DNA from: Clostridia bacterium
GTDB lineage: Bacteria > Bacillota > Clostridia > TANB77 > CAG-508
Direction of reading: 5' to 3'
NCBI GenBank assembly: GCA_022791735.1
Contig: JAAVZQ010000065.1
Location: 1-39,730, forward strand
DNA length: 39,730 nucleotides
The notes beneath the pieces are model-generated. The model was given only the letters and a program-made list of their open reading frames with translations. It ran no database searches and was not told the origin of the DNA. This document shows, in pieces, positions 5,128 to 17,837 of the stretch. Position 1 is the first letter of the stretch. Each line of letters opens with the position of its first letter. Both the position numbers and the translations under genes were made by a program.

Positions 5128-5262
5128 GTCCGCGCAGGGTAGTTCTATTAATAATTATCAAGAATACTCCTACACTTTAGAAAATGTTTGAGCATAGCGA
5201 TTTACATTTTCTTACAGTGGTGAGGTTTTCTTGAAATTATTAATAACTACCCGTTGCAGGAC
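5128..5262. repeat. Palindromic element copy A (~135 nt, GC-ended rod-like hairpin; MITE-like element or structured RNA)
   Basis: Plus strand reads GTCC-gcgca-GGGTAGTT-ct-ATTAATAATT-a-TCAAGAA ... AGAAAATGT-ttgagcatagcgattt-ACATTTTCT ... TTCTTGA-AATTATTAAT-AACTACCC-gttgca-GGAC. It is an inverted copy of 17704..17837. It overlaps the last 6 codons and the stop of gene 1. Confidence 0.8.
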
Positions 5263-8200
5263 TAACGATATTCAAAAGTTGTAAATTTTTCCACTTTACA
5301 GTTTTTGCAAGCTCCCCATAATTTCTAACCAAAATAGCCCTATCTAATCCATCAACAATTCCGTCTTCATTCAAGTCGTATTTTGCATTTGCATCTATTA
5401 CCCCATTATTTGACGCATTTATGCTTATTCCATAACGATTGTTCATTCTAACTAAATCGTCTATTTCGATTTCTCCTGTCCTTACTACATCTCCTGCAAT
5501 TAAGTGATATTCTCCAATATCTGATATACTTTCCTCTTTTATTTCTATGTCTTCCACTGTATAGTCTAAGTATGCTATCTTTGATACAACTACCATATAT
5601 TTACTATTTAGAAGTTCTGCATCATCTTCATCTGGGTTATAAACTGGTATTTTGAAAGTTCCGTCCTCATCTGTGTATACTCCTGTTACATATTCTAACT
5701 CTGTTACAGTTTTTGTTATCTCTTCATTTGTTTCTTCATCTATACTTGTAATGATTTTTTCTACTTGTCTATATACTCTTACTTCCGAAATGTATTCCCC
5801 ATTTACATTTTCTGTTGTTATCTTACCTGCAATATAGCTGTTTTTGTCTCTCATTCTCTCTATTACAAGTGTATATTCTTTTTCCTCTTCATTTTCTGAT
5901 GTAACAATAACTTTCACTGTCTTGTTTTCTCCATTTGGAATTTCTATTTCTCCAGTTAAAATACCTAACTTATCTGAAATTAGTACATCTCCTTCTATGC
6001 TCTCTATTCTTACTTTTGCATTTTCATCTTTTAGTTTTATTTCTACTGGATATTTTTCCTTTCCTTCAACTGTTGATGAATATGTAAGTCCATCCTCACT
6101 AATATTTGTTCCTAAGTTATCTACTTTGATGTATTTTATACCTGTTTCTGTCGATTTTTGCCTTATCTCTAAGGTGTAATCTTTGTATCCATAGCTTTCT
6201 CCGGTCTTTAGCTGTTACTCTTATTGTGTAAGTATCTGTCAACTTTGTTGTACTTAAAGTTTCTGTTTTTGTTACTACGCCTATGCCTGCCCCAATTTCT
6301 GTTCCTGCTTCATTTATTAATGTAACTGTTTGTTTTGCTCCATTTGCAATAGCTTCTATTAATGGTGCATTTTGATTTGGAACTAAAGCCTCATACTTAT
6401 TTGTTTGTTCATTATATGTTATTATATTGCCATTTACAGAAACTTGTTTTAAGCTTAAGTCTGCCTTTTTCGCAAAGTTTATTATATATTCTTTTGTTGT
6501 CACACCATCTTCTGCTTGTACTTCTACTGTTAAAACTTTTCCTCCGTCTTGCTCATAAGTACTTAAGTCTACTGTCCTTGTGATTTTACCTGTTTCATAT
6601 ACATCTTCTTCTGATAGTTTTAATTTTGCATTTTTATCATTTAGTATAATATCTAAATCAATTGACGCCGTGTCGTCATTTATATATACATAGAAAGTAT
6701 CTTCTTCTTTTTCGATTTTCTGTGATTCTGTTCCATTTACTTCTACTACTTGTTTTATAAGTACATCATTTGATTTTTTCTCTATAACTAATACCATATC
6801 TTCATAGCTTCCATCTTCTGCTATTACTCTTATAGGTACTTCTGTTATTTCATTTCTAAGCATCACATTAGCAGGATTTAGCTTACCATTATCTATTTCT
6901 ACACTTGACTTTTCAGATTGCAATTCTATTTGGACTATAGCTTCTTCTACTCTATCTATTTTGTAATGGTATTTTCCGTCCGCTTCTAATGTTGCTTCTT
7001 CTAAGTTTTCATTATCTTTACCAACTAACACACTTTGTATGTTATAGTTTACTTCAAGTCTTTGCACTTCAAGTGTATAAGTCTCTTGTGTTCCATCTTC
7101 TGCTGTGACGACTATCTCATAGATATAAAGTTTTACATTATCTATTACAGCATCCTTTTTACTAGCTATATAGCTGTTTTGTCCTATTCCATCTATTGTA
7201 GTTACCCCATATTTATCTTCTGCTATGGCTTCCACACTTATATTTTCTTCTGTCATTGGAATTCCAGTCTTATATGTACCATCTGGTCCCACTTTTACTT
7301 CTTTTCCATTTACTTTTACTATGTCTAAGTTACTATTTGAAGCCTTTTCTATTATTGCTATAATATATTCTTCTTTGTCTATTCCATTTTGTGCTGTGAC
7401 AGTAACTTTTACTGTCGTTTCTTTTCCTGTCTTATTTACTGTTATGTTGCCTTTTCCTATCACTGGTTCATTTTCATCTAGTTTTAAAGTTGCAAGTATG
7501 TCATTTAGTGTAACTTGTATATTGTATGTAGATAAATTACTTCTTATCTCATAGCGGTTTTTGCCTTCTATGTATGTAGCTTTTTCCCCATTCACAACTA
7601 CTTCTTTAATGCTTGTGTCGTCTGGCAATCCTTCTATCACTAAGATGTATTCCTCTATATTTCCATTTTCTGCTTTTACTTTTACACTAACCTCTGTTTT
7701 CTTTGAAGTTATATTTACTGTTTTTTCTTTTTCATATAGTTCATATCCACTATTGTCTATTGTTACATAAGTTTGAGCAAGAGCTTTTTCCTCTACAACT
7801 GCCTTTACCTCTACCGAGGTTTTAGCTTGTTTTAACATATAGTGGTATTTTCCTTCTTCTCCAAGTGTTGCTTCTTCTCCGTCTACTTCTATCTTTTCTA
7901 GGTTTGCATTTTCTGACATCTTAACTATTGTAAGTAAACATTCTGTCTCGACTTTTCCGGTCTTCTGATTGTAATTTAATTACAACTTCTGTATTTGTAC
8001 CAGTTAAAGTTATTTCTTGTGTGTCTTTATTCATTACATATACACCTGTATTTCCTATTTGTACTTTGTCTTTGATGTATTCTGTAATTGCTGTTACATC
8101 TACTTTTTCTAACTCATATGGTACTCTCACTTCATATTTTAGGTCTTCTGTTTCTTTTGCTTTATATACCTTGTCTCCACTTTGTGCATAAATATCTACT

Positions 8201-17638: not shown

Positions 17639-17703
17639 GTGTATCCTCTCTAACGAATAAAAAGTAGCATATTGTAGTCTGTTCACAGCTTCAAATAACA
17701 TCT

Positions 17704-17837
17704 GTCCTGCAACGGGGATTAATTAATAATTTTTTGAAAATCTCCCCCCTTAAGAAAATGTAATTCGCTATGCTCAAACATTTTCTAAAGCGTAAGAATC
17801 ATCAAAGAAATTATTAATTGAAATCCCCTGCGCGGAC
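17704..17837. repeat. Palindromic element copy B (inverted relative to copy A), inside the 5' UTR of giant gene 1
   Basis: Its reverse complement aligns with copy A. Shared parts are the termini GTCCGCGCAGGG / CCGTTGCAGGAC and the core CTTTAGAAAATGTTTGAGCATAGCGA-n-TTACATTTTCTTA. The arms differ in a pairing-preserving way (GGGGA..TCCCC here vs GGGTAGTT..AACTACCC in A). It lies between the predicted promoter (17885..17912) and ATG 17638. No equivalent is present upstream of gene 2. Confidence 0.8.

Follow-up and report, generated by a model that had tools for sequence, protein, structure and literature searches.

The 39,730-nucleotide stretch of Clostridia bacterium DNA analysed here (contig JAAVZQ010000065.1; hereafter the window) carries two inverted copies, A and B, of a palindromic element on either side of a very long coding region, gene 1. 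Because these inverted repeats flank the coding region and not its promoter, an initial annotation of the window read them as the possible ends of an invertible ON/OFF segment. Our analysis indicates that A, B and a third, decayed copy (C) are probably members of a family of small, non-coding, mobile palindromic repeats of the MITE (miniature inverted-repeat transposable element) or REPIN kind, and not parts of an inversion switch. The element is found as an insertion in a leader and at a 3' end, it keeps its hairpin structure, its copies are dispersed, and it is present or absent at related loci. We favour a mobile repeat because of this dispersal and leader variation, and also because contigs break within the element, copies in Clostridium hominis occupy unrelated regions, and no protein family recurs beside the element among 22 loci.

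Copies A (core 5128-5262) and B (core 17704-17837) are reverse complements of one another. An inverted-repeat search recovered the arms 5118-5214/17751-17847 (81% complementary) and 5216-5272/17694-17750 (77% complementary), and blastn aligned the two copies with 81.9% identity over 138 nucleotides. Pairwise alignment identified common termini, GTCCGCGCAGGG and CCCGTTGCAGGAC, together with a 26-nucleotide identical core, CTTTAGAAAATGTTTGAGCATAGCGA, that matches the core reported initially; the second identical block, TTACATTTTCTTA, is 13 nucleotides long and not 14 as first counted. In the window the 21-mer GAAAATGTTTGAGCATAGCGA has exactly two occurrences, and 100 shuffles yielded none. Folding either strand of A or B gives a rod with an energy between -40 and -52 kcal/mol and a z-score between -6.1 and -9.0, a stability reached by 0 of 200 shuffled sequences. 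Given the reverse-complement alignment, the 21-mer comparison with shuffles and the z-scores of the rods, the observation of two inverted palindromic copies around gene 1 is real and far beyond chance, as alignment, blastn and folding each confirm.

The element is longer than the ~135 nucleotides originally assigned to it. Alignment of A and B with three further metagenome copies reveals a conserved outer arm of ~25 nucleotides on each side (left, ATTCACAGCTAAATAAACTTAAAG; right, ending in the mirror-image AAGCTGTGAAT), which brings the whole element to ~187 nucleotides (Table 1). The outer ends TTCACAG...CTGTGAA are kept in A, in B and in the copies at L027, L033 and L025 (loci are cited by L numbers). 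Because the entire element is an imperfect palindrome, terminal inverted repeats are present. The element is small and has no open reading frame (ORF) of its own, gene 1 only reading 8 codons into copy A. Differences between the arms of A and B had been described as preserving base-pairing, and this is upheld by a three-copy comparison: once L027 is added, both sides are altered in 9 of 61 predicted pairs.

The same subfamily was found in four other contexts with different flanks (L025, L027, L033 and L061), giving six distinct contexts in all, with decayed copy C additional. Locus L027 carries a complete copy with compensating stem changes, located upstream of an ORF starting MRVAIVHDWL whose product, judged by eye, we take to be glycosyltransferase-like. 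The copies in L033 and L025 are 94.6% and 93.8% identical to A, respectively, and both contigs end within the element. Contig breaks or N-gaps lie inside the element in L001, L053, L025, L033 and L061, which is the usual behaviour of a repeat. A metagenome scan for the exact terminus plus tip, with A and B excluded, yielded no further copies. No direct repeat of the kind expected for a target-site duplication was found at the junctions of A, B, L027 or three C. hominis copies, the boundaries of all these copies being uncertain by a few nucleotides.

Comparison of leaders provides evidence for insertion. The leader of gene 2, a paralogue of gene 1 in the window, aligns collinearly with the gene 1 leader across their common promoter and then lacks ~190 nucleotides, and copy B is therefore an insertion. 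The same comparison bears out the earlier proposal that B lengthens the gene 1 leader downstream of the shared promoter, from ~45 nucleotides without the element to ~240 nucleotides with it. Homologues of the gene 1 N-terminal module in two other lineages, which are 55% (L057/L058) and 66% (L059/L060) identical, have short leaders without the element, and it was not seen in the visible 96 nucleotides upstream of a 61%-identical homologue (L055/L056). An 86%-identical homologue (L061) has the element ~35 nucleotides upstream of its start codon in the orientation opposite to B, in a contig that starts inside the element. This copy (L061, 1-40) lies within about 10 nucleotides of the position of B, just downstream of the promoter -10 box, and could mark an insertion hot spot or a palindrome that has flipped in place. 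Element-free orthologous leaders, the four other contexts and related hairpins in unrelated housekeeping intergenic regions argue against a specific tie of the element to gene 1. As a separate observation, a PDDEXK_2 family protein (transposase/nuclease-like fold) is encoded at 138-1040 of L059, directly upstream of the 66%-identical, element-free homologue, with no link to the element established.

Decayed copy C was found with the element profile just past the gene 2 terminator. Its right-terminal ~47 nucleotides (20395-20441) align to the element model (E=4.2e-5), and its left end and flank (about 20291-20338) align to the left end and flank of A, with the flank ATTATTGGAAAATTTACA common to both. 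The interior of C is lost, including the tip motif. Gene 2 had been described as lacking the element; this is correct for its leader, but not for the gene as a whole, since C adjoins its terminator.

The features that first suggested an inversion switch are present: inverted repeats bracket the coding region and exclude the promoter, and A and B have a 26-nucleotide identical core in common. By such a mechanism, site-specific or homologous recombination between A and B would flip the 12.6-kb coding region away from a fixed promoter. However, the same orientation was found in 5 of 5 assemblies across the A junction (L002-L006) and in 4 of 4 across the B junction (L050-L052 and L054), where each assembly reports the majority state and a minority orientation could escape it. 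The arms are just ~82% identical, with at most 26 identical bases, and each is itself palindromic. Moreover, the element is also found singly at other places, and the bracketed gene 1 is already split into at least seven ORFs. In agreement with the initial annotation, no recombinase or transposase is present among the Pfam matches of all large ORFs in the window. With one orientation in all nine informative assemblies and arms of such limited identity, switching by inversion appears highly improbable. Invertons have short repeats and a recombinase gene nearby or elsewhere in the genome. The likeness to them is that inverted repeats bracket a DNA segment beside a fixed promoter; here, in contrast, both repeats are entire copies of a mobile palindrome, the window lacks a recombinase gene and a second orientation was not observed.

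The mobile-repeat reading also accounts for changes at both ends of gene 1, for which the relevant coordinates are collected in Table 1. Copy A had been placed past the end of the coding sequence and ahead of the terminator. Copy A does lie upstream of the terminator, but it is not wholly past the coding end, as the final 8 codons and the stop of the last gene 1 ORF come from it. Homology between genes 1 and 2 stops at ...VKW(K/Q)NLQ, after which sequence resembling the outer arm of the element follows in both paralogues (tails compared: gene 2, 20489-20560; gene 1, 5262-5300). Judged from these sequences, an old element insertion may predate the duplication that produced genes 1 and 2.

Table 1. 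Features of the window discussed in the text (feature, positions, strand, remarks).
Feature	Positions	Strand	Remarks
Copy A, full element, ~187 nt	5104..5290	+	nhmmer 5101-5291, E=2.5e-59; tip-motif strand +, antisense to gene 1
Tip (apical) motif of copy A, GAAAATGTTTGAGCATAGCGA	5180..5200	+	within copy A
Copy B, full element	17675..17862	-	nhmmer 17864-17674, E=3.2e-59; tip-motif strand -, sense strand in gene 1 leader
Tip (apical) motif of copy B	17765..17785	-	within copy B
Copy C (decayed)	20291..20442	+	between gene 2 terminator and LRR gene promoter; profile match E=4.2e-5
'Giant gene 1' ORF chain	5240..17701	-	N-terminal module without Pfam hits, RCC1 repeats, Big_2, cadherin-like, C-terminal dockerin
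Gene 1 sigma-70-type promoter (TTGAAA, 16 nt, TATAAT)	17885..17912	-	predicted; conserved upstream of gene 2; outside A-B bracket
Gene 1 likely start codon (ATG after GAGAGGA)	17636..17638	-	public assemblies call a 424-aa product from this ATG
Stop codon of last gene 1 ORF	5240..5242	-	inside copy A; element encodes last 8 codons (SPATGSY*)
Terminator-like hairpin and T-run, AAGAAAGAGAGCCAAATTTGGCTTTCTTTTTTTT on - strand	5050..5092	-	downstream of A; core stem 5065-5078 flagged by terminator scan, rest read directly

The window has a G+C content of 32.6%, and every long ORF is on the minus strand. Gene 1 cannot be treated as the single giant gene originally described, because under translation table 11 it comprises at least seven ORFs across three frames, a pattern that is repeated in independent assemblies. 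Reading TGA, TAG or TAA, each alone, as a sense codon did not join these ORFs, and an alternative genetic code for gene 1 was rejected because reassignment of a single stop codon does not repair the chain. Independent short-read (Illumina) assemblies carry the same ORF pattern (401, 539, 904, 600 and 225 amino acids), which shows that the breaks are real rather than errors of sequencing. The locus is also carried by the metagenome-assembled genomes GCA_022799135.1 and GCA_949120565.1. The giant-gene ORF chains may be decaying pseudogenes or may undergo unusual expression. Gene 2 is fragmented likewise (ORF chain at 20489-35282, minus strand), with frameshifts and in-frame stops parting both chains. 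One strain (L001) has further breakage of the chain, and a neighbouring gene of 2918 amino acids is unbroken in assemblies that show the fragmented giant genes.

When all large ORFs of the window were compared with Pfam, the only matches were to RCC1, Big_2, Big_3, cadherin-like, dockerin, LRR_5 and CAP domains. The LRR_5 (BspA-type) protein encoded at 18128-20161 on the minus strand ends in a repeated proline-rich tract (PDPPKPVDPV), and the gene for a 1192-amino-acid Big_3 protein includes a repeat array with 12- and 18-nucleotide spacings (36495-36732).

The positions of A and B at the two ends of gene 1 also raise the possibility of a cis-regulatory RNA device that is selected at the giant genes, in which the hairpins of the leader and 3' end, or long-range 5'-3' pairing of the two, would govern how the long mRNA is processed or how stable it is. 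Insertions do recur around this gene family (B, the independent, oppositely oriented copy in the L061 leader, A, C and the element-like C-terminal tail of gene 2), and both A and B are present in every strain sampled. However, the leaders of gene 2 and of the 55-66%-identical homologues are free of the element, and the opposite orientations of the two leader insertions mean that only a generic hairpin, and not a sequence motif, could matter. Long-range pairing, which had been raised as a possibility in the initial annotation, is thermodynamically favoured, with -176.6 kcal/mol for the A:B duplex versus -127.1 kcal/mol for the two local hairpins together. We nonetheless judge such a duplex to be improbable on kinetic grounds, since the RNA of each hairpin can fold on itself as it is transcribed, 12 kb ahead of its partner sequence. 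The same element is found beside unrelated genes too, and we consider a dedicated RNA device to be an improbable explanation for its presence here.

Hairpins with the same tip extend beyond this subfamily. When one genome per species was searched for the exact 19-mer tip, 13 loci were returned, and a metagenome scan with an 18-mer returned 28 loci. About half of these matches are chance or coding occurrences, and in the remainder the motif forms the very tip of a long hairpin. We identified 13 independent rods of 66-282 nucleotides that are capped by the 18-22-nucleotide tip motif AATGTTTGAGCATAGCGAGTTT. The 22 nucleotides are invariant in the rods, and the adjoining stems are unrelated in sequence and always paired. 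Named sources include Clostridium hominis, a Clostridiaceae metagenome-assembled genome (MAG), Megamonas, an Ignavibacteriaceae MAG and Desulfuromusa; metagenome contigs supplied the remaining rods. C. hominis carries three copies of ~250 nucleotides that are 96-97% identical and reside in unrelated intergenic regions between housekeeping-type genes. The orientation of the elements relative to neighbouring genes is mixed.

Several features of the rods recur in addition to the tip. When the rods were read by eye, the basal boxes could be generalised to CYGCGYAGRG ... CYCKTWGCAG, and an internal loop was seen repeatedly with TGAGC(G)AGC on one arm and GCAGCGAA on the other. A GAGC/AGCGA theme is also repeated in internal loops along the rods. 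The tip UUUGAGC-AUA-GCGAGUUU could form a two-pair GC stem that closes a 3-nucleotide loop, with tandem G.A pairs on either side. In L040 there is a variant tip, GAGC-GAA-GCGAG, in which the flanking GAGC and GCGAG are kept, and exact-match scans therefore undercount the hairpin family. A covariance model built from the tip plus 12-bp stems recovered only known loci and missed this GAA variant. Column-wise covariation counts for the superfamily were dropped, as T-runs beside the loop shift the pairing register.

Additional arrangements were observed at individual loci. On the + strand of L040 near position 1363, a second hairpin with the variant tip TGTTTGAGCGAAGCGAGT lies ~190 nucleotides from the first and on the other strand. 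In the Desulfuromonadales-like loci L010 (reverse strand, 7478-7681) and L028 (1573-1776), the tip hairpin resides within a larger unit of ~205 nucleotides that is 75% identical between the two and includes a second hairpin and the GC-rich boxes CCGCCAACGGCGGGCAAGGAG ... GGCGNCGAGCGGG..CGCAA.CCTGCGACC. In L013, a tip motif without a rod (7842-7881) is found ~60 nucleotides from the start of another element (7943-7998), which suggests that copies in the Clostridiaceae MAG are clustered or truncated.

Searches of existing collections gave no counterpart. Rfam 15 yielded 0 matches at gathering scores in the window and 10 related loci, and permissive E-values gave noise only. No significant blastn match to the element or to the C. 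hominis tip region was obtained among 72,556 plasmid (PLSDB) or 50,697 phage records, the plasmid matches all having E values of about 5. The termini pattern was not found in viral contigs. Two matches to a 17-mer of the tip in viral contigs were rejected, as neither lies in a hairpin and one reads through as a protein-coding frame. A full-text literature search with the motif as a sequence string returned unrelated primer sequences only. The supplementary sequences that Cozzuto et al. 2008 give for 92 stem-loop repeat families, Clop-1 and Clot-1 among them, do not contain the motif.

An invariant 22-nucleotide tip on 13 independent rods with unrelated stems could point to a single-stranded nucleic-acid element that has a function of its own and a conserved protein partner, such as an ssoA-like priming site, an HUH-nicked hairpin or a structured RNA, for which transposition would be secondary. 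Retention of GAGC and GCGAG in the variant tip is in keeping with this idea, as is the finding that, in 17 of 18 rods, the strand with the motif is the more stable of the two when folded. However, the excess of G.U pairs outside the tip is just 55 versus 36 (p = 0.07) and is absent in the subfamily of the window. Strand-specific selection on the rods is for this reason suggestive only, and strand asymmetry was rejected as proof of selection at the RNA level, the p value of 0.07 being that obtained after tip-internal pairs were excluded. Orientation relative to neighbouring genes is also inconsistent, and the copies are chromosomal, among housekeeping-type genes.

The most specific form of this alternative is an ssoA origin. 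These origins, which are located on rolling-circle plasmids or ICEs, are likewise imperfect hairpins of ~130-160 nucleotides with variable stems and a conserved tip-loop hexamer. They work in one orientation only, and their CS-6 box is TAGCGT (PMC5703833; PMC4598088), which resembles the TAGCGA found in the tip loop of every rod, although a 6-mer is weak evidence. The ssoA RSB box (TTATGCCGAGAAAATTT) is absent, its best matches having 5-7 mismatches and being no better than those in shuffled sequences. Judged by its flanking genes, the element is chromosomal as well as multi-copy, and it has no match in the plasmid and phage records described above. An ssoA origin was rejected accordingly, since the hexamer alone matches, the RSB box is absent and the location is wrong, and we regard a primarily single-stranded function as unlikely overall.

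A broader proposal concerns the family as a whole. The element of the window might be the local form of a hairpin superfamily that occurs in several phyla and is defined by its invariant tip rather than by its stems or ends, with a conserved partner that recognises the tip on one of the two strands; we offer this only tentatively. Such a superfamily would span Clostridia, Negativicutes, Ignavibacteria and Desulfuromonadales, and conservation on this scale would imply a conserved partner. This could be a new single-strand-DNA transposase or nickase, comparable to the REPIN-RAYT system outside Proteobacteria, or an RNA-binding protein.

Returning to the mobile-repeat reading, we propose that repeated insertions brought the element to intergenic, leader and 3'-end sites in a gut Clostridia-like lineage. 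Copy B would have landed in the gene 1 leader just past the promoter, and A or its ancestor would have landed at the extreme 3' end of the coding sequence, where it now provides the last codons and the stop. The inverted placement of A and B would thus reflect repeated insertion around paralogous giant genes and not a recombination module. From their positions after the predicted promoter and before the terminator, respectively, B and A should both be transcribed in the gene 1 mRNA. Each transcribed copy would form a rod of about 70-85 bp. By analogy with Correia and ERIC elements, such a rod may be targeted by RNase III or may block exonucleases, and the stability of the mRNA would change as a result. 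More speculatively, movement might depend on a protein supplied in trans that reads the tip motif and basal boxes, possibly on single-stranded DNA, a mode of movement that fits the absence of target-site duplications.

Several observations weigh against this reading. The evidence for mobility comes from distribution, with target-site duplications at 0 of 3 complete copies and no cognate transposase found. The copies seen are few and not dozens. Insertions also cluster at one gene family, with two independent leader insertions, A, C and the element-like tail of gene 2, and this clustering could reflect selection for function at the giant genes rather than neutral landing. In addition, compensatory changes in a palindrome can arise by hairpin-templated repair and need not reflect selection on function. 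The initial annotation had held that a plain MITE with no link to the gene would be recognised by dozens of scattered copies with target-site duplications. Dispersal, unrelated contexts and element-free leaders were indeed found, but dozens of copies and target-site duplications were not.

If the mobile-repeat reading is correct, then the idea of a 12.6-kb invertible giant gene gives way to a simpler account, in which a mobile hairpin has reshaped both ends of a surface-protein gene by adding ~190 nucleotides to its leader and rewriting its last codons. The hairpin-repeat family involved has no description in Rfam 15, PLSDB, the phage collection, the 92 families of Cozzuto et al. 2008 or the full-text sequence searches, and its tip motif is identical in distant anaerobes. 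The abundance of the element in gut Clostridia is probably underestimated, because short-read assemblies break inside the copies. If a partner protein reads the tip, the family would offer a tractable new example of hairpin-directed recognition of DNA or RNA.

Among known mobile repeats, MITEs share with the element a small size (~187 nucleotides here, under about 500 bp), the lack of coding capacity, terminal inverted repeats, insertion at unrelated positions and presence/absence variation. The element differs from them in lacking a target-site duplication, and no transposase was found in the window or beside the other element copies examined.

The closest architecture is that of REPINs, which are doublets of repetitive extragenic palindromic (REP) sequences associated with RAYT (TnpA-REP) proteins. 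These are likewise non-coding, dispersed and intergenic, and form one long imperfect hairpin; neither they nor the element make a target-site duplication, and any transposase acts in trans for both. Head-to-head REP dimers carry conserved spacers (PMC3733652; PMC6006769); the first of these papers makes no mention of Clostridia or Firmicutes. REP units are hairpins of 20-40 nucleotides tagged with GTAG or CGTC. The element is instead a single rod of 66-282 nucleotides in which the tip loop is the most conserved part, without separate short REP hairpins. It also has no consistent GTAG, with GGGTAG in A and GGGGAT in B, and with GTAG present also in L011 but not in L027. No RAYT gene was found in the 22 loci examined.

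The closest functional analogues are the Correia (CREE) elements of Neisseria and the ERIC/IRU elements of enterobacteria, which are palindromic repeats of ~100-170 nucleotides that lie near genes and are transcribed with them. Correia elements make a TA duplication, which is not seen at the element. There is no sequence similarity between these families and the element, and they are confined to a genus or family, whereas the tip motif is found in several phyla. RNA hairpins formed by Correia elements are acted on by RNase III, and those of ERIC by RNase E, with resulting changes in mRNA levels (PMC10969869; PMC2267715). In Clostridium cellulosomal operons, mRNA stability is controlled by stem-loops at the 3' end (PMC4423207).

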